Of a stretch of DNA of 23,274 nucleotides, positions 802 to 13,599 are shown piece after piece; the stretch's first letter is position 1; each line of letters begins with the position of its first letter. Position numbers and translations under genes: made by a program. The DNA comes from Candidatus Iainarchaeum sp. Lineage in GTDB: Archaea > B1Sed10-29 > WALL01. The DNA is taken from NCBI GenBank assembly GCA_023129115.1, contig JAGMCR010000018.1:1-23274 (forward strand), in the 5' to 3' direction. Below the pieces are notes generated by a model. The model ran no database searches. It saw only the letters and a program-made list of their open reading frames with translations, and had not been told where the DNA came from.

Positions 802-3800
802 TTAAATCCTCTTTTCCCGCAGCCGCTTGTGCATTTCCTTGAGGTCATTGAGCTTGGCGAACCATCCCTGCCTGCGGCCGCCGAGGTCCTGGTAGCACTC
901 GTCTTCGTCGGGCTCTTTTGACCCCTTCTTTGGGACGGTCTTCTGCATTTTCGCGAACCCCTGCTTCTTTATCGACTTGTTCAGGTCTTTGATGTATTTG
1001 ATTTGGTCATTGCTCAGCGAGTGCAGGAACAGATTCTTGTTGTTGTGCACTGCAGTGGCTATCAGCGCGCGAATCCATGTCTCGCCCGTGGGGTGGGCAA
1101 GGCTGGTGTAGACTCCAAGTTCGTTGATGTGGCTTAGGGTGCCCCTGCCTCTGAGCTGGGTCATCTGTACTCTTGTCCTCTGCCCCTCATTGCTCTCAAG
1201 CGTTAGGATTGGCATTGCGTTTTCTGTGGCATTGACTTTGGCGTTTTCCTTGTACTCCCCCTCGGTGATTCTCAGGCACGAGCCGAGCGATGCATGGTTC
1301 CTGTCCAGCCCGAGGAATAGGCGATCCAGCCCCCTTAGCTTGTGCAGCGTTACCCCGACATCGCCCTTACCAACGTTCGTCTTTAGGTCAGAGAGCATTT
1401 TTGTTGTGTCCACGGCTTCGCCCAAACTCCTTTCAATGCCCTCGCTCCTTAGAGAACCCGACCGCCTTTTAATTCCCTTCAAGTGGTCCCTAATGCTTTC
1501 GAGGTCAGTGCCCGTCTTGATTCCTCCTTTAACAGCTTCCTTGAGGCCGTTGACGTGCCCTCTGAGCACTGTTCGCACGCTCTCCTTGCCGATTTTTTTC
1601 AGTTTTGATTCATCGCAGCCCGTTAGAACAAAGTCTATGTGGCCTTGCAGTGCCTTTGCTTGTGAGTCGAACGCCTCCTTGTTGAACCCCCCGCCACTCA
1701 GCGTTTCCTCGAAGTCAGGAACCTCAATTTCGGTGCCCTTGCCCTTGTTGTGCCCCAGGTTATTGATGAACTCTTCTGCCGCGTCCTCGCCGCCCTTAAG
1801 GTGAGCGGAAACAAGGCCTTTCGTGACGTCGTCGCCTTCCTCCCGGTGGTAGGCATACGTTAGCATTAGGTGGGTGTCAATGTCCTCTGTGTCGACGCCG
1901 AACTCCTTCCTGAACTCTGCCTTCTGCTTTTCCTTGGCCAGCCATGCTGCTTTCTTGCTCTTCGCAATCTTGTGGAATACAGCATAGTCCTTCTCGTCTT
2001 TCGGGAGGCGGTGGAAGGCAACCATGTCGCCGACCCCTTCCTTGCCCTCGTGCTCCTTCGCCTGCTCGAACCTCCTCAGCACGTTCTTGGAGCGGAACCC
2101 AACGATTGTGTCCAGCATCTCTTCCGCGCTCTTCCCTTCCACGTCCTTCTGTTTGAACCTCTTTGTGAGCTCCGCCCTCAGTGCCTCCTCGTCGGTTTCC
2201 ACGCCATGCTCTTCCCTCGCTTTTTCCACGAGCTTTTTCTTGAGCTCTTCCGCCATTCTCTTGACGTCGCTCTTCTTCTTCGGGATGACGTTGTTGGCGA
2301 TGCAGAACGCCAACAATGGCTTGTCTTTCTCCTTGAGCTTCGTGTGCAGGTCAAACTCCTTTGCTTTGGGCATCTTCATGTCCATCTGGGCCAGTTTGTA
2401 CCTCTCCTTGAACTCTTCCCAGAGCACGCTCCGGAAAAGCTCCCTGTCAGTCTTGTTGTTGGCGTCCGTCGCGGCTGTCTCGGGGATAAAGTCTTCGCTG
2501 TGCTCGAGCACGTCATACATGTTGTCAATGAAGTGGATTTCCTTTTCTGACTTCAGCACCTGTCCCGCGAAATCCGGGTCTACACTCCACTCCAGCAGGG
2601 CAGGCAGGGAGTCCTCTATGAATTTCTCAATCTTTTTGCCGGGGTACACCTCCATTATCTTGTGCGCTGCCCGCACCATGCGCTCCATGTCCTCAGGAGT
2701 CTTTGACTCGTAAGCTGCAGGCCGCAAGATATACTCGCCGAAGCCCTCTGTGCCAAGGGTTTCTGGCATCTCCCGCGTGAGCCTGTGCGCGGCTTCGCCC
2801 CACTCAGCCATCTGGGCGAGCCTTTTCTTTGCGTCCTTCACCCCCTTGAGCTTGTCCTCCATGACTATGGGGAGGAACTTCCTGCAAAAAGCGTTTATGT
2901 CGCCCCCTTTCGGGTGGTCTTGTATGAGCTTGTTCAATGCTACTACTTCTTCCACGCTTCTTGCTTTGTCTATGAGCTTTGGCATGCCAGCCCATACCAA
3001 TCGGTCCAGGTCCGCGTTTTTCGCGTTTTTTGGGTAGCTGCTCACGGTCTTGTTCACCGCCTCACCCATTGCCCTAAGTTCTTCTGCGTTGTTCGCTTTC
3101 CCGAGCATGGCACTGAGCGTGTATCCTATAAAGTGTTCTTGGGTGTTGGGGTCCTGGTACTTCCTTATGAGTTGGTACGCTGTCTTTCCCAACTCCCTTA
3201 TCTCTTCCGCGTTTTTTGCTGTTTTGGCTATATCTTTTAGGCACGCTGCAACGAACTCTTCCATGTACCCCTCCTTTGGATGGGTTCGTATGAGCTTGTC
3301 CACTTCCATGAGTTCTTCTGGTGTCGTCGTGTTTTTCATCACGTCCAAGAGGATGTCATTGAAGTCGCCTGTAGTCACGAGTCTTGTTTTCGTATAGGTC
3401 TGTATGATTTGGCTTGCTGCCCTTATTCTTTCCGTGCCGTTCGCTGCTTCGAGCATGTCTGGGAGAATCCCCTCTACAAAGCCACCTATGTCCCATTCCC
3501 TTGGGTAATCTCTTATGGCATCGCTCATTGCCCGCAGTTCTTCCACAGTCTTTGGCTTGTTGAGTATCTCTGTTGGAGTAAGTCGCATGAAGTGGTCTAC
3601 TGAGTCTATGATTCCTTCCGCATCTCTCTTGAACTCGGGGGCGGCTTGCGTGAGCTTCTTCCGGTACGTTTGTATGGCTTGGTTTATCGCGTGCAGCTCT
3701 TCCGGCGTCCTTGCCGCATCGATTATTTTCGGGAGAATATTCTCTCTTCGGTAGTAGAAGGCCTCCGGGGGGTGGTCAAGCACGAGCTGGTCGACCGCCT

Positions 3801-4266
3801 TGCCGAAGTCCAGCACTTCTTTCGCGTTCCCGGATTTTTCCAGTATTTCCGGAAGGGCTGTGTCTGCGAAGAAGCTCCCCGTACTTACCAAGAAATCCCC
3901 CTCATCTTGTGCAGCCGTGCTCACTATCTTCGCGTGCTTTGCGTACTCTTTTATGACCTGGTTCGCTGCACGTATCGCTGCTGCGTCCTTCGCGTTGATG
4001 ATTATGTCGCGGAAGACAGCTAGAGGGAAGGGTTCATCTGGGTCTTCGGGCACTGGGTAATCCGCCACCATCTGCTTTACTGCGCTGAAGAACTCCTCGT
4101 CCTCCAGCTTCTTCATTATCCTTCTCTTTTTGCCGAACAAGCCGATGAAGTTTTCTTCAACGAATTCCTTTACCAGCTTCCTCGGCACCTTCCCAAGAAG
4201 CTGTTTCCCCCGCGCCTTCTTCTTTGTTACACGGGTTTTCGCTTTTACCCCGCCCTTTTTCCCCAT
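802..4266 (-). CDS. Large orphan protein (about 1154 aa) with alpha-helical repeats of about 35-40 aa
   Basis: Long ORF; ATG at 4266 (MGKKGG) lies 32 nt from a TTTATAT box starting at 4298; recurrent F-x4-LP-x-hh-x2-A-x-[TN]-x-EEL-x-A...I-x2-[YH]P pattern. Confidence 0.85.
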   Translation of the reverse strand: MGKKGGVKAKTRVTKKKARGKQLLGKVPRKLVKEFVEENFIGLFGKKRRIMKKLEDEEFFSAVKQMVADYPVPEDPDEPFPLAVFRDIIINAKDAAAIRAANQVIKEYAKHAKIVSTAAQDEGDFLVSTGSFFADTALPEILEKSGNAKEVLDFGKAVDQLVLDHPPEAFYYRRENILPKIIDAARTPEELHAINQAIQTYRKKLTQAAPEFKRDAEGIIDSVDHFMRLTPTEILNKPKTVEELRAMSDAIRDYPREWDIGGFVEGILPDMLEAANGTERIRAASQIIQTYTKTRLVTTGDFNDILLDVMKNTTTPEELMEVDKLIRTHPKEGYMEEFVAACLKDIAKTAKNAEEIRELGKTAYQLIRKYQDPNTQEHFIGYTLSAMLGKANNAEELRAMGEAVNKTVSSYPKNAKNADLDRLVWAGMPKLIDKARSVEEVVALNKLIQDHPKGGDINAFCRKFLPIVMEDKLKGVKDAKKRLAQMAEWGEAAHRLTREMPETLGTEGFGEYILRPAAYESKTPEDMERMVRAAHKIMEVYPGKKIEKFIEDSLPALLEWSVDPDFAGQVLKSEKEIHFIDNMYDVLEHSEDFIPETAATDANNKTDRELFRSVLWEEFKERYKLAQMDMKMPKAKEFDLHTKLKEKDKPLLAFCIANNVIPKKKSDVKRMAEELKKKLVEKAREEHGVETDEEALRAELTKRFKQKDVEGKSAEEMLDTIVGFRSKNVLRRFEQAKEHEGKEGVGDMVAFHRLPKDEKDYAVFHKIAKSKKAAWLAKEKQKAEFRKEFGVDTEDIDTHLMLTYAYHREEGDDVTKGLVSAHLKGGEDAAEEFINNLGHNKGKGTEIEVPDFEETLSGGGFNKEAFDSQAKALQGHIDFVLTGCDESKLKKIGKESVRTVLRGHVNGLKEAVKGGIKTGTDLESIRDHLKGIKRRSGSLRSEGIERSLGEAVDTTKMLSDLKTNVGKGDVGVTLHKLRGLDRLFLGLDRNHASLGSCLRITEGEYKENAKVNATENAMPILTLESNEGQRTRVQMTQLRGRGTLSHINELGVYTSLAHPTGETWIRALIATAVHNNKNLFLHSLSNDQIKYIKDLNKSIKKQGFAKMQKTVPKKGSKEPDEDECYQDLGGRRQGWFAKLNDLKEMHKRLREKRI

Positions 4267-4309
4267 TGTAAGCAATTATGTTTTATCCGGAATATAAATC
4301 CACCTCCCG

Positions 4310-4348
4310 CGATTTTTCCTACGCTTTTTCTTCCGCCGTTTCGGCTTT
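4310..4348 (+). repeat. Direct repeat, copy 2; continues into an imperfect hairpin (4335-4393)
   Basis: cgatttttcctacgctttttcttccgccgtttcggcttt matches 51-88. Confidence 0.9.
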
Positions 4349-4515
4349 CTTAAGAATTTTCGCCTGCGGCTAAAATCCTAAGAGCCGAAAGGCTACAGAC
4401 ACGCTCCGTAAAAATTGCTTTGGAGGCCGTAAAAAATGAATGTCAAAACATACAGGCTTTGCCAAAACTCAAAAAGAAGACCCTTACAAACGGCTCCAGA
4501 AAGGGAGATTCCACG

Positions 4516-4546
4516 AAAACCTTTATAAACGGACCCATTCAGAATA
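4516..4546 (+). promoter_or_regulatory. BRE/TATA promoter of the infB operon
   Basis: aaaacctttataaacggacccattcagaata; 28/31 identical to the rps15 promoter at 15160-15190. Confidence 0.8.
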
Positions 4547-4620
4547 GTCTCCACCGTCCTCGGGGCAGGGCTGATTAAGTTCCCACCAAAGCCGCTGAGG
4601 GACAACGGAATTTTACACCG

Positions 4621-6426
4621 GTGATAAACACGATTAGACAACCGATTATCGTGGTCCTTGGACATTGATTGCAGCTCCGGCTACAATCGACCAAAAATGT
4701 TGACCACGGGAAAACGACGTTGTTAGATAAAATTAGGGACAGCGCTATAGCCACAGGAGAACCAGGAGCAATCACCCAGTCAATAGGCGCAAGCGTAATA
4801 CCAAAAAAAACCATCGAAGAAATCTGTGGAAAACAACTAGGGAAAATGGGTATTAAGTTAACAATCCCTGGGTTGCTCATAATCGATTCGCCTGGCCACG
4901 AGGCGTTCACCACCCTGCGGAAGAGGGGGGGAAGCATCGCGGATTTTGCGGTGCTGCTTGTGGATATTAACGAGGGGCTGCAGCCGCAGACACTGGAGAG
5001 CATGGAAATACTCAAGAGCTACAAGGTGCCGTTTGTTGTGGCGGCTAATAAGATTGACCGGTTGGAGGGGTGGTACACCGAAAAGGAGAACGCTCCCTTC
5101 CTCGAGACGATACAGCGGCAGAAGGACGACGTCAAGGAAAGGCTGGACAAAAAGATTTACGAGCTCGTCGGGGCATTGCACGAAAACGGTGGGTACAGTT
5201 CCGAGAGGTTCGACCGGGTTGACGACTTCACGCAGCAGGTCGTGATTGTGCCGACCAGCGGCAAGACAGGCGAGGGGATTCCAGAGCTATTGCTGTTCAT
5301 CGCCGGATTGACGCAGAAGTACATGGAGGACAAGCTCAAGACCGGCGACAAGCCAGCCAGGGGCACTGTTCTTGAAGTGAAGGAAGTCCAGGGGTTGGGG
5401 ACTACTATTGACGCGATTATTTACGACGGGGTATTGAGCGTCGGGGACACGATTGTGGTCGGCGGCAAGAACGGGCCGATTACCACAAAAGTGAGGGCGC
5501 TGCTCGAGCCGAAGCCATTACAGGAGATAAGGGACCCCAAGAAAAAGTTCGAGCACGTGCAGAGCGTGGTTGCGTCCGCAGGCGTGAAAATCAATGCGCC
5601 CGACCTGGACGAGGCAATGGCCGGGAGCACAGTCATGGTCGCGGAAGAACTCGAGGCTGCCCAGCAGAGCATCGCGGAAGAGCTCGAGGACGTCACGATA
5701 CGCAAGGAGAGCACTGGCGTCGTCGTCAAGACCGACTCGATTGGCTCGCTCGAGGCGATTGTGCGGCTGTTAGAAAAGCGCGGCATACCGCTGAAGAGCG
5801 CAGCCGTTGGGAACGTCACGAGGAAGGATGTTCTCGAGGCAGAGGCAGTGCACGGCAAGGACAGGTATTTGGGAGTGGTGTTCGCGTTCAACACGCCGGT
5901 CTTGAAAGAGGCTGAGGGAGAGGCGCTGGAGGCGGGGGTCACTGTCTTCGAGAGCCCGGTGGTCTACAAGCTTATTGAGGAGTACGACAAGTGGCATGGG
6001 AAGGAAAGGGAAGTTGAGAAAGAAGAGGCGCTGAAGAACTCACACTACCCCGTCAAGCTCGAGCTGCTGCCGGGCTACGTGTTCCGGTCCAGCAAGCCCG
6101 CCATAATCGGCGTGGAAATCGTGGACGGGATACTCAAGGTGCCGTGCCCACTCATGAACGAGCACGGCAAAAGGTGCGGGCGGGTGAAGGAGATACAGAA
6201 GGACAAGGAAAACGTCCAGACGGCAGAGGCCGGCGAGCGGGTGTCGATTTCGGTCACCGGCATAACCATCGGGAGGCAAGTCAACGAGGGCGACGTGCTC
6301 CTGACTAACATTCCTCTAAAGGAAATCCCCAGGCTGATGAACGAGGTAAAGCACGCTTCATTGCTTGCGGAAATAAAAAAGATAAAGAAAGAACGTAAAG
6401 AACCAACTTCAATCAAAGAGGTGTAG
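4621..6426 (+). CDS. infB: Translation initiation factor aIF5B (IF-2); predicted join(4621..4663,4697..6426), about 590 aa
   Basis: IRQPIIVVLGH + [53 protein letters not shown]; canonical position upstream of rps6e; exact start codon uncertain. Confidence 0.95.
4664..4696 (+). other. Candidate 33-nt BHB/BHL-type mRNA intron in infB
   Basis: In-frame TGA at 4666; central helix TTGG(4658-61)/CCAA(4691-94); bulges AC^A and AA^A; intron stem TTGATTG/CAATCGA; removal gives CTT GGA CAT GTT GAC CAC (LGHVDH). Confidence 0.8.
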
Positions 6427-9255: not shown

Positions 9256-9743
9256 GCTACAGGCTGACGCCCGAGCTGCGTGCAAGGCTGAAGGAGCCGT
9301 TCGGGAAGCTCTTGCCAGAGCCGGACTGGGACGGCGAGTTCATTGCCGTCGGGGACGAATGTGCGTTCCTCGCGGCCAAGGCGGGCAAGGAGCCGATGGT
9401 TACGGTGTACGACTTCCGCATAAAGCGCAAGGAAATCTCCGAGGAAAAGCGGGAGGCCATCGAGAAGATGCCGGGCAAGACCATAACAGTCGACAACCCC
9501 GCCGGAGAAATAACCGGCGAGGCCGAGATGGCCATCCGGCTTGCGCTGGAAAGCAAGCCGTCCAAGGTGTGCGTGAACGGCGAGGAGGACCTGCTGGTCC
9601 TGCCGTGCATCGTGCACGCGCCGGAGGGGACCGTAGTGTACTACGGACAGCCCGACGACGGGGCCGTCAAAGTGGAAGTGACCGCCAAAAAAAAAGAAGA
9701 GGCAAGGGAAATCATGCTCTCAATGAAGGAGGTAGAACAATGA
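9252..9743 (+). CDS. DUF359 family GTP-dependent dephospho-CoA kinase
   Basis: LKEPFGKL, IAVGD, NPAGEIT, VNGEEDLLVLP, VYYGQPDDG; GTG start overlapping the spt4 stop. Confidence 0.92.
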   Translation: MSYRLTPELRARLKEPFGKLLPEPDWDGEFIAVGDECAFLAAKAGKEPMVTVYDFRIKRKEISEEKREAIEKMPGKTITVDNPAGEITGEAEMAIRLALESKPSKVCVNGEEDLLVLPCIVHAPEGTVVYYGQPDDGAVKVEVTAKKKEEAREIMLSMKEVEQ

Positions 9744-10201
9744 ACATTGAGGTGGAAAACGAGAACGTCAACCGCCTGCTCCACCGCACCGAGCTGAAGT
9801 GCAGGATGGAGACCGGCGGCGTGACTCCCTCGAGGAAAGAGATTATACGGCAGATAGCCGCGAAGAAGGGCGTAAAGGAAGAGCTCGTCGTCGTGGACAG
9901 GATAGACCAGGAGTACGGCAAGAAAGAAGCAACGGCGTACGTCAAGGTCTACGAGTCCGAGAAGGCGGCGCAGTCCATCGAGCCCAAGTACAAGATAGAG
10001 CGCGGCGCAAAAGCGCTGAAGCCGCCCGAAAAGAAGGAAGAGCCAAAGGCAGAGGAAAAGCCACCAGCTGAGGAAGCACCAACCGGGGAGTCGCCCGGTG
10101 GCGACTCCCCCAAGGAAGATGCGCCTGCCGAGGAGAAGAAGGAAGAAGAGGCTCCGAAAGCAGAGGAAGCCCCTGCTGAAGAAAAGAAGGAGGGAGAGTA
10201 A
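9740..10201 (+). CDS. rps24e: 30S ribosomal protein S24e with E/K/P/A-rich tail
   Basis: NRLLHRTE, TPSRKEI, YG...AYVKVYES, EPKY; ATG at 9740 with SD GGAGGT. Confidence 0.94.
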   Translation: MNIEVENENVNRLLHRTELKCRMETGGVTPSRKEIIRQIAAKKGVKEELVVVDRIDQEYGKKEATAYVKVYESEKAAQSIEPKYKIERGAKALKPPEKKEEPKAEEKPPAEEAPTGESPGGDSPKEDAPAEEKKEEEAPKAEEAPAEEKKEGE

Positions 10202-10407
10202 TGGGAAAGAAGAGTGGTGAGCGCAAGGGCAAGAAAGCACCCCGCAAGAGGAACCGCGTCAAGAAGTCCTCGCTCTACGAGGCCAAGGAAGGGCGGCTGG
10301 AGCGCAAGCGCACCCCATGCCCCAAGTGCGGCGCCGGAGTGTTCATGGCAGAGCACGAGAACCGGATGAGCTGCGGCAAGTGCGGCTACACCAAGTGGAA
10401 GAAATGA
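10201..10407 (+). CDS. rps27ae: 30S ribosomal protein S27ae
   Basis: CPKCGAGVFMAEHENRMSCGKCGYT. Confidence 0.97.
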   Translation: MGKKSGERKGKKAPRKRNRVKKSSLYEAKEGRLERKRTPCPKCGAGVFMAEHENRMSCGKCGYTKWKK

Positions 10408-11357
10408 TTTGCCTCGGCATCGAAAGCACCGCCCACACTTTTGGGGTGGGCGTGTTCGACGGCAAGGCACGCGCGAACGAGAAAGCTGTCTATCGGACGA
10501 TGGGCGGCATCCACCCCCGCGAGGCCTCGCAGTTCATGTGCACGCACGCGGCGGAAGTGGCCGAGGCGGCCCTCGAAAAAGCAGGGATTGGGCTGGGGGA
10601 CGTTGATGCGTTCGCGTTCGCCCAGGGCCCGGGCCTCGGGCCATGCCTCCGGGTGGGCGCGGCAGTTGGCCAGGCTCTGGCAGGCTATTACGGTAAGCCA
10701 GTAGTTGGCGTGAACCACTGCGTTGCGCACATAGATGTCGGGAAATGGAACCGGAAGGCGAGGGACCCGCTGGTGGCCTATGTCTCCGGGGCCAACACCC
10801 AGATACTCGGCCTGAACGGGGGGAGGTACAGGGTGTACGGCGAGACCCTGGACATAGGGATGGGCAACGCGCTGGACGTTTTCGGGAGGTCAATCGGGCT
10901 TGAGTTCCCAGCGGGGCCGGCGATAGAAAAATTGGCCGCCAAGGGAAAAAAGTTCCACTTCCTGCCTTATTCTGTCAAGGGGATGGACCTCGCGTTCGCG
11001 GGCCTGGTGACTGCGGCGTCGAAGTCGAAAATTCCGAGGGCTGACTTGTGCCACTCGTTCCAGGAAACTGTTTTTGCGATGCTTGTCGAGGTCAGCGAGC
11101 GGGCGCTGGCGCACACAAAGAAAGAGGAGCTGATGCTCGTGGGGGGGGTCGCGCAGAACAAACGCCTCGGCGCAATGCTGTCGCAGATGGCAGAGGAGCA
11201 CGGCGCGAAGTTCTTTGTCCCCGAAAACCAGTACAACGCGGACAACGGGCTTATGATTGCACTGACCGGGTGGAAGATGCTCAGGGCGAAAGTCAGGCAG
11301 GGGGGCCTGAAGACGAACCAGAAGTGGCGGACCGACGAAGTGGCTATTGCCTGGTGA
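10404..11357 (+). CDS. kae1: KEOPS t6A tRNA threonylcarbamoyltransferase Kae1
   Basis: LGIESTAHTFG, GGIHPREA, GPGLGPCL, VNHCVAH, GETLDIGMGN, ADNGLMIA; ATGA overlap with rps27ae. Confidence 0.97.
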   Translation: MICLGIESTAHTFGVGVFDGKARANEKAVYRTMGGIHPREASQFMCTHAAEVAEAALEKAGIGLGDVDAFAFAQGPGLGPCLRVGAAVGQALAGYYGKPVVGVNHCVAHIDVGKWNRKARDPLVAYVSGANTQILGLNGGRYRVYGETLDIGMGNALDVFGRSIGLEFPAGPAIEKLAAKGKKFHFLPYSVKGMDLAFAGLVTAASKSKIPRADLCHSFQETVFAMLVEVSERALAHTKKEELMLVGGVAQNKRLGAMLSQMAEEHGAKFFVPENQYNADNGLMIALTGWKMLRAKVRQGGLKTNQKWRTDEVAIAW

Positions 11358-11556
11358 GGTATTCGTAGCAATACGGGCAGACCTCTTTCCCACCGAAGCC
11401 GAGGAAGCCGCCCAGGCTTTTCGCGCACAGGGCGCAGAGGCGCATGCCGCACTCGCTGCACGTGTGGACCGCCCACGGGCCCCTCATTCTGCAGCCGCAC
11501 ACGGGACAAAATGCCGATGCAGGGGTTGGGGTTCCGCCGCCCCGGTCAAGGAACAT
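11344..11556 (-). CDS. Small protein (70 aa) with four CxxC pairs; FYVE/RING-like double zinc finger
   Basis: CPVC...HTCSECG..LCALC...VCPYCY; ATG at 11556 lies 29 nt from a TTATATA box. Confidence 0.75.
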   Translation of the reverse strand: MFLDRGGGTPTPASAFCPVCGCRMRGPWAVHTCSECGMRLCALCAKSLGGFLGFGGKEVCPYCYEYLTRQ

Positions 11557-11594
11557 AACAAAGAATAAAAAGCGTCGGTATATAATGGTTCCCC

Positions 11595-12296
11595 ATGACC
11601 GAGCTTTTGTACATGCAGGACTGCTACGCCAAGGAGTTCGACGCGAGCGTTGTCTCTTTTGGGAAGGGATACGCCGTGCTGGACAGGAGCGCGTTCTACC
11701 CCGGGGGCGGGGGACAGCCCAGTGACACAGGCACGCTGAACGGCGTGGGGGTGAGGGAAACCAGGAAGAAAGAGGGGGAGATAAGGCATTACGTGGAAGG
11801 GCCGCTTGATGGCGGGGTGCACGGCGTGCTGGACTGGGGACCAAGGTACGCGCACATGAGGATGCACACGGCACAGCATTTGCTGTCCGCCCTCGTGCTC
11901 GACAAGTACGGCGCAGAGACTGTTGGGAACCAGATACACGCCGATTATTCGCGGATGGACTTTGCGCTGGCTTCCGTTGACGACGAGATGCGCGGCTGGC
12001 TGGCGCACGAGTTCGACAAGGCAGTGGGCGAGGCGAGGGAAGTCAGGATTTACACTACGGGGAGGGACGACGTGATTGCGTCGGTGGACCCGAGGCGCAG
12101 GAAGCTCTTCGAGCGCGTGCCGCCGTTCGTCAAGGAAGTGCGGGTCGTTGAGATAGACGGCATCGACAAGTGCCCCTGTGCCGGGACGCACGTTGCGAAC
12201 ACGAAAGAAATCGGGGGCATTACGATAACGCGCGCCGAAAACAAGGGCGCGGGCAAAACGCGCCTCGTTTTTGAGCTGGGGCAGGGAAACCTTTAA
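11595..12296 (+). CDS. alaXM: Free-standing alanyl-tRNA editing protein AlaX-M
   Basis: FYPGGGGQPSDTG, MRMHTAQHLL (HxxxH), CPCAGTHV (CxxxH). Confidence 0.95.
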   Translation: MTELLYMQDCYAKEFDASVVSFGKGYAVLDRSAFYPGGGGQPSDTGTLNGVGVRETRKKEGEIRHYVEGPLDGGVHGVLDWGPRYAHMRMHTAQHLLSALVLDKYGAETVGNQIHADYSRMDFALASVDDEMRGWLAHEFDKAVGEAREVRIYTTGRDDVIASVDPRRRKLFERVPPFVKEVRVVEIDGIDKCPCAGTHVANTKEIGGITITRAENKGAGKTRLVFELGQGNL

Positions 12297-12332
12297 AAAG
12301 CGTGCCCAGTTAATTGCTTTTGGTGATAGCCA

Positions 12333-12971
12333 ATGCCTAGAACTAAAATGGAACGGCTCTTGGTGAACCCAGAAAAGTTTTTTGAGAAAGTTGTGAAAGA
12401 AGACGTCAAAGAGGCTTGGAAATACATGGCCTACTGGGCGCTTCTGCCTAGCCTGGTTGCCATAATTGCCATCGGCTTTCTGGACGTGCCGCTCGGCGGC
12501 TACGTCGCGATGCCGACATGGCTTGGGGACCTCGTGCTTGGCGGCATGCCCTTGGCTGGAGTAAGCCTCGGAGTCGCGACCGGAATCGCTATTTATTTGG
12601 GCATCTTCATTGGTGTATTCATAACATCCATAGTGGCCCACGCGGTTGCAAGCGTAATGAAAGGGAGGGGCAAGTTCGAGGACACGCTGCAGGCAGTCAT
12701 CTACGGCACGTCTCCGTTCTATGCCTTTGGATGGCTCCCGATTTTCGGCCCGCTCTTTGGGCTGTACTCGGTGCTTGTCCAGGTCCCTGGCTTCAAGGCA
12801 CTGCACAGGACGAAGTACGTCAAATCTGTGCTGATTGTCCTTGGGACGCTGCTGCTGATTGGCGTGCTTACCGGAATTATGCCCATTCTCACGGGCGTGT
12901 TTGCAACTGGGTACCACCCTGGAATCGTTGTTAACGGCATAAAGGGGATTATCACACTGATGCTGGTGTGA
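12333..12971 (+). CDS. Yip1-domain integral membrane protein
   Basis: LLVNPEKFFEKV N-terminus, GRGKFEDTLQAVIYG..P, about 5 hydrophobic segments; SD GGTGAT. Confidence 0.8.
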   Translation: MPRTKMERLLVNPEKFFEKVVKEDVKEAWKYMAYWALLPSLVAIIAIGFLDVPLGGYVAMPTWLGDLVLGGMPLAGVSLGVATGIAIYLGIFIGVFITSIVAHAVASVMKGRGKFEDTLQAVIYGTSPFYAFGWLPIFGPLFGLYSVLVQVPGFKALHRTKYVKSVLIVLGTLLLIGVLTGIMPILTGVFATGYHPGIVVNGIKGIITLMLV

Positions 12972-13017: not shown

Positions 13018-13599
13018 ATGCTTATTTACAGGGGCGCCGAGGCCGAACTCTACAAGGGAAAGTTTTTTGGCATCGACTGCGTCCGCAAGGTAAGAAAGGA
13101 AAAGAAGTACAAGGAAGCACAGCTGGACCGGAAGCTGCGGGGAGAGCGGCTGCGCAACGAGGCGCGCATGCTTTCCCGGGCGAGGGAAGTGGTTTCCACG
13201 CCCCGCGTGCTGGCAGTGAGTGGCGATACTTTGGTGATTGAGTACGTCGATGGCGACAAGGTAAAAGACCTGTTTTTGAGTGGGGACACGAAGGCCGCGT
13301 CAAGGATAGGGAAGGCAATCCGGCGGATGCACGACAGCGGCATCGTGCACAACGACTTGACGACCAGCAATTTGATTCTGAAGGCTGGGAAAGTGTTTTT
13401 CATCGACTTCGGGCTGGCCCAGCAGAGCACAGCGCTCGAGGACAGGGCGGTCGACCTCGTGGTGTTCAAGAGGATGCTGTCGTCCACGCACTACGATGTT
13501 TTTGGGCGGGTGTGGCCCAGGGTGCTCGCGGGGTACGGCGCCGGGGACAGGATTCTGGCCAAAGTGCAGGAAATCGAGTCCAGAGCAAAATACAAGTAA
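13018..13599 (+). CDS. bud32: KEOPS kinase/ATPase Bud32
   Basis: RGAEAEL, LDRKLR..R...EAR, IVHNDLTTSN, FIDFGL, EDRAVDL, IESRAKY. Confidence 0.95.
   Translation: MLIYRGAEAELYKGKFFGIDCVRKVRKEKKYKEAQLDRKLRGERLRNEARMLSRAREVVSTPRVLAVSGDTLVIEYVDGDKVKDLFLSGDTKAASRIGKAIRRMHDSGIVHNDLTTSNLILKAGKVFFIDFGLAQQSTALEDRAVDLVVFKRMLSSTHYDVFGRVWPRVLAGYGAGDRILAKVQEIESRAKYK

Follow-up and report, generated by a model that had tools for sequence, protein, structure and literature searches.

A candidate bulge-helix-bulge intron within the P-loop codons of aIF5B from a DPANN archaeon

How can an archaeon obtain a functional translation initiation factor aIF5B from a gene whose GTP-binding P-loop is split by a stop codon? 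This question is raised by contig JAGMCR010000018.1 of Candidatus Iainarchaeum sp. (assembly GCA_023129115.1), whose 23,274 nucleotides are the window analysed here and which covers part of the genome of a DPANN-type archaeon. The aIF5B gene runs on the + strand from GTG 4621 to TAG 6424-6426, and its P-loop is split between the codons for GH and those for VDHGKT. An earlier note on this DNA had read the split as an mRNA intron removed by the tRNA-splicing machinery, and this interpretation was supported in that it held in every part that could be tested computationally. We consider it probable, on the basis of the comparisons and fold predictions described below, that positions 4664-4696 are a pre-mRNA intron in the aIF5B coding sequence, of the relaxed bulge-helix-bulge (BHB) kind known from archaeal cbf5 and spliced by an EndA/RtcB-type pathway.

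The split gene and its uninterrupted relatives

Read from 4621, the frame gives INTIRQPIIVVLGH, the TGA at 4666-4668, LQLRLQSTKN and then VDHGKTT..., followed by 575 open codons to the TAG. The insertion of a segment with an in-frame TGA into the P-loop had been described in the earlier note, and every coordinate was borne out. Apart from this insert the gene appeared intact, with all four domains present in the predicted exon 2: GTP_EFTU (Pfam, 5.5e-30, from profile position 12), GTP_EFTU_D2, IF-2 and GTP_EFTU_D4. The same exon matched PDB chain 5fg3_A at 9.1e-179, with an alignment beginning at chain residue 25. The open reading frame (ORF) without exon 1 begins at this residue of 5fg3_A, at residue 14 of 1g7r_A and at position 11-12 of the GTP_EFTU profile, and is therefore devoid of strand beta-1 and of the first two P-loop residues. 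As had been expected of gene callers, the public call for the contig (P0001) is truncated: it comprises 526 aa and begins MGIKLT. The aIF2-gamma gene downstream keeps an uninterrupted GHVDHGKT, as previously noted and as seen again on reading its ORF.

A close relative, the metagenome-assembled genome (MAG) sequence WALL01000012.1 of a 'Nanobdellati archaeon' (L001), encodes an aIF5B with 74% amino acid identity in a continuous reading frame. The gene order aIF5B-S6e-aIF2gamma-PIN-RpoE'-Spt4 is common to both sequences, L001 having in addition a 185-aa ORF between PIN and RpoE'. In the DNA alignment of the two loci, a comparison with relatives that had been proposed beforehand, a single gap of 33 columns lay exactly opposite window positions 4664-4696. 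When the window frame was read through with an X at the stop, its residues 3-15 aligned to residues 22-34 of 7yzn_A, and VDHGKT followed after a gap of 11 residues. P-loop codons were uninterrupted in all 32 of the 32 genomic aIF5B loci fetched, L001 being the one close relative among them. The start of the window gene at GTG 4621, which is the sole canonical in-frame start downstream of an upstream TAA (4576-4578), is a prediction since the ATG of the L001 orthologue aligns with ACG 4630-4632.

One way out of the dilemma would be that the insert is translated, either by read-through or recoding of the TGA, adding 11 residues to the P-loop, or by a start at TTG 4669. The 33 nt do preserve the frame, and the ORF from TTG 4669 is open over 585 codons. 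TGA, however, closes 12 of the 24 genes in the window and is therefore a real stop here. Moreover, 11 residues between GH and VDHGKT, or the loss of strand beta-1 together with GH, would disrupt the G1 motif. This motif was found in 164 of the 176 aIF5B proteins examined (nine of the other twelve are without an N-terminus and three are Ser or Ala variants) and also in the solved aIF5B structures. Since the P-loop would be destroyed, read-through and internal initiation are both very unlikely, and we give them next to no credence. A sigma-70-like promoter site predicted inside the insert was set aside as irrelevant for an archaeon.

Another way would be that nothing functional is made from this copy. 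The insert might have arisen as an artefact of assembly, or be a recent inactivating insertion of a small element with palindromic or hairpin character. In that case this copy would be a dead or mis-assembled one, and the BHB geometry described below would be coincidental. An insert that forms a hairpin would by itself account for the intron stem, and its presence in one sequence only would fit as well. Against this stands the state of the gene, whose other 575 codons are not only open but strongly conserved, with all domains kept. It also occupies the orthologous syntenic position, and aIF5B is a universal factor, as a rule encoded by one copy. The insert is neither duplicated from flanking sequence nor a repeat in the window, where no second copy was found with up to three mismatches allowed. 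Independent assemblies of relatives also gave calls truncated at the P-loop. We regard an inactivated or artefactual copy as unlikely.

Fold of the proposed precursor and predicted splice sites

The helices proposed in the earlier note were all present, and together they constituted the minimum-free-energy (MFE) fold of 4645-4713 (-23.6 kcal/mol, z = -3.46), with one of 200 dinucleotide shuffles being as stable. The same local fold was the centroid for this segment and remained the centroid within a 161-nt context; its elements are collected in Table 1. The stem between the exons was real and turned out two bp longer than previously listed, and the pairs of the intron hairpin had probabilities of 0.76-1.0. 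C4657 paired with G4699 at a probability of just 0.12. Since the 3' site lies in a loop of 7 nt that faces a single unpaired C, the motif takes the relaxed bulge-helix-loop (BHL or HBh') form, which was seen in the MFE and centroid folds alike, as had been claimed. Of the elements of the strict hBHBh' definition, the 5' bulge, the 4-bp helix and the flanking helices were present and the second 3-nt bulge was absent. A competing helix between 4662-4666 and 4696-4700, put forward earlier as a potential switch, does exist, with a pair probability of about 0.34 as against that of the central helix (Table 1); forcing it gave -23.8 instead of -24.7 kcal/mol. Any role of this helix as a switch or in regulation would be pure speculation.

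Archaeal BHB cleavage falls between the second and third residues of the bulge, as described in PMC2738675. Cuts predicted by this rule would remove 33 nt and yield ...LGHVDHGKT..., colinear with the homologues, in agreement with the product that had been postulated. A GHVDHGKT product is possible from just three 33-nt deletions, namely 4664-96, 4665-97 and 4666-98. The cuts predicted from the fold single out the first of these, because the other two registers, as read from the sequence, cannot form the central helix. The predicted intron follows base 1 of the P-loop His codon.

From these elements, the following course may be proposed. The gene would be transcribed together with the insert. 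In the pre-mRNA, exon 4658-4661 would pair with intron 4691-4694, as predicted in silico, and this central helix would be flanked by the bulge 4662-4664 and the intron hairpin on one strand and by the loop 4695-4701 and the exon-exon helix on the other. Following the established rule, EndA would cleave 3' of nucleotide two on either side, at 4663/4664 and 4696/4697, and following the established pathway, an RtcB-type ligase would join the exons and probably circularise the 33-mer. From the spliced mRNA, an aIF5B of 590 aa would be made in which the GHVDHGKT P-loop is intact. Translation of the unspliced RNA would terminate after 15 codons, and aIF5B production would therefore depend on splicing. 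The P-loop would be a favourable site for such an intron, as its Val-Val and Asp-His codons would supply the outer helix for free. A regulatory coupling of aIF5B supply to the splicing machinery would be a speculative extension of this scheme.

It might also be the ribosome that skips the insert. In programmed bypassing of the phage T4 gene 60 type, it would take off at the His codon and land 33 nt downstream. The CAU from which it would take off (4663-4665) has a stop immediately behind it, and this is also where a stable stem-loop begins; the T4 gene 60 gap likewise has a stop after the take-off codon and a stem-loop. The triplet before GUU 4699, however, is AAU (4696-4698) and not a His codon; compared with the CAU take-off, there is therefore no matched landing codon, and the locus differs in this from gene 60, where the gap lies between a take-off and a landing codon that match. 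Landing on the next CAC (4705-4707) would drop Val-Asp from the P-loop. Bypassing, furthermore, does not require the additional geometry of a 4-bp helix and a 3-nt bulge. We hold it to be highly improbable.

As to the proposed intron, two null models were used to estimate how often its geometry would arise by chance. In the first, the insert was mononucleotide-shuffled 200,000 times and replaced at the same place. A 4-bp central helix in the frame-restoring register was obtained in 16,513 of the 200,000 shuffles (8.3%); a right-register helix, given a hairpin, is thus found in about 8% of shuffles, which is a point in favour of an inactivated or artefactual copy. Such a copy would, however, also need its hairpin to begin exactly one base past the predicted cut and to finish directly against the central helix. 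A flush intron helix of at least 5 bp was present as well in 38 of the 200,000, and the observed 7 bp in a single one. In the second model, every 33-mer from either strand of the window, 46,482 in all with the real insert among them, was placed at the site: 25 reached at least 5 bp and two reached 7 bp, the real insert being one of the two.

Table 1. Coordinates of the features at the aIF5B locus and the basis of their assignment.
Feature	Position	Strand	Basis or description
TATA-like box TTTATAAA	4523..4530	+	read from the sequence; putative promoter of the aIF5B-S6e-aIF2gamma cluster
Conserved leader element, 43 nt	4558..4600	+	41/43 identical to L001 2917-2959
Exon 1 (predicted)	4621..4663	+	GTG start, INTIRQPIIVVLG codons, His codon base 1
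Exon helix h, 8 bp	4649..4656 / 4702..4709	+	MFE fold; pair probabilities 0.85-0.99
Central 4-bp helix H, exon UUGG / intron CCAA	4658..4661 / 4691..4694	+	MFE fold; pair probabilities 0.53-0.62
5' bulge ACA, 3 nt, predicted cut 4663/4664	4662..4664	+	MFE fold; cleavage rule of PMC2738675
33-nt intervening sequence, predicted BHB/BHL intron with in-frame TGA 4666-4668	4664..4696	+	gap versus L001 and PDB aIF5B
Intron hairpin h'	4665..4690	+	7 bp (4665-4671/4684-4690), C-A mismatch, 3-bp tip (4673-4675/4680-4682), UCCG loop
3' splice-site loop AAAUGUU opposite C4657, predicted cut 4696/4697	4695..4701	+	MFE fold
Exon 2 (predicted)	4697..6426	+	His codon bases 2-3, VDHGKT..., rest of aIF5B to TAG

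Truncated homologues and points against an intron

Among the named aIF5B homologues, the best came from Candidatus Diapherotrites (58-61% identity) and Micrarchaeota (51-56%); other relatives reached 74-78%. The N-terminal strand and GH were missing in nine of the 176 proteins. Seven of these belong to the 20 closest to the window, namely the window's own 526-aa call P0001 as well as P0006, P0007, P0013, P0014, P0015 and P0018, and two, P0131 and P0145, to the other 156. The concentration among the closest proteins would favour the intron reading. Three proteins of separate lineages start exactly at the junction that is interrupted in the window: P0013 (M-DHGKTT), P0131 and P0145 (both VDHGKT...). 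To judge from these protein sequences, such starts hint at a recurrent interruption of the His/Val site.

Two of the truncated proteins, P0007 and P0014, share MKRPVSADV, identical in both, which replaces the strand and GHVDHG and runs directly into KTTLLD. They are 65% identical to each other and fall into different subclades, with the intact P0008 and P0010 as their sisters. The same insert in two lineages, a sequence conserved by its pairing with the exon, or a real P-loop-less form are possible explanations. A protein search with P0007 as query returned no further close relatives.

In a quick IQ-TREE phylogeny of 36 rows, the window aIF5B grouped with the intact P0002 (SH-aLRT 92), and every interrupted protein had an intact nearest neighbour. 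The interrupted label was scattered over this tree, which gave no support to the interruptions having arisen once in the clade. A more far-reaching proposal would make the His/Val junction of the P-loop a recurrent landing site of short BHB introns in several unrelated archaeal lineages, its conserved Val-Val and Asp-His codons offering the exon helix. Some inserts might be mobile, to judge from the N-terminus common to P0007 and P0014, while the supply of an essential initiation GTPase would be tied to EndA/RtcB activity and the near-isoenergetic competing fold would mask the splice sites. We consider this doubtful, if conceivable.

A number of observations weigh against the intron reading and are best considered together. 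The evidence for it comes from the DNA sequence and from in-silico folding, and among the DNA sequences compared a single one carries the insert. The scope was one 23-kb window, so that a second, intact aIF5B elsewhere in the genome is possible. The 3' site is a 7x1 internal loop with no canonical 3-nt bulge, a geometry at which cleavage by endonucleases of strict specificity is not to be expected. The central helix reached a pair probability of only 0.53-0.62, with the competing fold just 0.9 kcal/mol away. On the tree, the interrupted label required nine changes for nine rows, which is no improvement on shuffles (mean 8.1). This scatter fits repeated gain and loss, as for cbf5, and equally, in part, gene-calling or assembly noise; if noise, it would also suit a dead or mis-assembled copy.

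The motif itself calls for similar caution. A loose BHB-like scanner gave 85 matches across the window, of which 29 fell on the + and 56 on the - strand, and the observed helix lengths were equalled by four + strand matches (three places), three of them antisense to ORF 802-4275. Since the pattern is common in the window, its presence alone means little, and this, too, would be compatible with an inactivated or artefactual copy. The 8-bp exon helix was rejected as a sign of selection, because synonymous resampling of the same peptides gave an exon helix of at least 8 bp in 17.7% of 100,000 trials. Such a helix is expected from the peptide since Val-Val codons (GUN-GUN) are inherently complementary to Asp-His codons (GAY-CAY), a complementarity that may explain why the P-loop site tolerates or attracts a BHB intron. 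The exon helix was not seen in L001, where Val-Ala-Val stands at this point of the protein.

Known introns and the surroundings of the gene

The earlier note knew of no intron in aIF5B/infB, and none was reported in the full-text literature searched (subscription journals and supplements lay outside this search). According to PMC7714728, mRNA BHB introns had by 2020 been reported only in cbf5 (coding sequence, Crenarchaeota) and in the leader of HVO_1309 in Haloferax. The cbf5 introns are described in PMC2738675 as 16-44 bp long, several of them in frame (33 bp in Stetteria), with mostly unconventional or relaxed BHB motifs, and as following base 1 of the catalytic Asp codon. As far as these accounts go (Watanabe 2002; Yokobori 2009, PMC2738675), cbf5 introns and the aIF5B insert are alike in being short, in lying within coding sequence and in having a relaxed BHB. 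They share the same phase within the codon of an essential residue, after base 1 of Asp in cbf5 and of the P-loop His in aIF5B, and splicing would be obligatory in both. Gene callers mis-annotate both, and the insert may be as patchy among relatives as the cbf5 introns are. On the other hand, cbf5 encodes a pseudouridine synthase of Desulfurococcales and Sulfolobales, hosts with a hetero-tetrameric type of endonuclease, whereas the window gene encodes the aIF5B GTPase of a DPANN archaeon. The marks of the cbf5 family (cbf5 gene, Asp codon, Crenarchaeota) were thus not found for the insert, whose host is aIF5B and whose relatives are DPANN. By analogy, the insert appears to work like the cbf5 introns while not being a member of their family by descent, gene or lineage.

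The HVO_1309 intron of Haloferax volcanii is likewise an mRNA substrate of the archaeal splicing endonuclease, and its removal matters for expression, as reported in PMC7714728. It differs in lying in the untranslated leader (5' UTR) of a euryarchaeal transcript. Splicing is backed by cDNA and in-vitro cleavage for cbf5 and was shown in vivo and in vitro for HVO_1309, whereas for the coding insert in aIF5B it is predicted from the DNA.

The motif architecture, like the superphylum, is shared with the non-canonical BHL/HBh' introns of pre-tRNAs: a proper 3-nt bulge closed by two helices, a central helix of 4 bp, and a loop that holds the second site. They are cut by the epsilon2 enzyme of ARMAN-2, by crenarchaeal (alpha-beta)2 and by loop-bearing DPANN enzymes, according to PMC5829648 and PMC12397907. 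The same two sources describe DPANN endonucleases as alpha4 with an extra loop, (alpha-beta)2 or epsilon2 enzymes associated with many disrupted tRNA genes. They link inserts in DPANN EndA, often specificity-broadening loops, to the cleavage of relaxed motifs, and report that the ARMAN-2 epsilon2 enzyme cuts BHL substrates. Unlike the pre-tRNA introns, the aIF5B insert is hosted by an mRNA, with no tRNA body to aid recognition. Of the 22 main ORFs in the window, none gave an EndA domain in Pfam. A further parallel is offered by HAC1/XBP1 of eukaryotes, spliced by IRE1 together with RtcB or tRNA ligase, where a short mRNA intron likewise gates a functional protein independently of the spliceosome; the endonuclease is a different one, the motif consists of twin stem-loops and splicing is stress-regulated.

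Upstream of aIF5B, the 43-nt element shared with L001 (Table 1) stands out from flanking non-coding DNA and upstream genes that differ between the two sequences. It is probably a conserved 5' leader since it lies downstream of the TATA-like TTTATAAA. The element gave no Rfam match near the gathering score, and its fold was no more stable than those of shuffles. Rfam revealed nothing meaningful over 4276-4760 at E up to 10, and in the window as a whole tRNA-Gln was the only match at gathering level. Two antisense ORFs, 4393-4665 and 4575-5015, belong to no Pfam family.

The main ORFs of the window comprise aIF5B, S6e, aIF2-gamma, a PIN-like protein, RpoE', Spt4, a DUF359 protein, S24e, S27ae, Kae1, a Bud32-like kinase, Ham1, S15, S3Ae, PheRS-beta, a KaiC-like ATPase, CDP-archaeol synthase and D-Tyr-tRNA deacylase. 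The cluster genes PIN, RpoE, Spt4, DUF359, S24e and S27ae are all intact. The longest S24e ORF (9359-10201, 280 aa) overlaps the DUF359 gene and has its Pfam match from residue 132 onwards; it is probably over-extended and not a fusion. Between Kae1 (10317-11357) and the Bud32-like kinase (13018-13599), the opposite strand carries an ORF of 477 aa (11484-12917) with no Pfam family. Within Kae1, a second in-frame 33-nt scanner match (10883-10915) was judged to be chance on account of its codon phase (2) and its position within FGRSIGLEFPAG, a conserved segment. On the - strand, 802-4275 encodes a 1157-aa ORF without a Pfam family. Several long hairpin or BHB-like matches occur antisense to it at about 886-1229, for example at 1022-1046 and 1104-1177, and suggest internal inverted repeats.

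If validated, the aIF5B insert would be only the second interrupted archaeal coding sequence of this kind and the first in DPANN, and it would reside in a universal translation GTPase. Genes of this type are called truncated or missing, which affects the estimation of completeness and marker-gene work on small-genome archaea. The substrates of DPANN endonucleases would extend beyond tRNA, and the entry of BHB introns into protein genes, a long-standing question, would become testable at a defined, possibly recurrent site.

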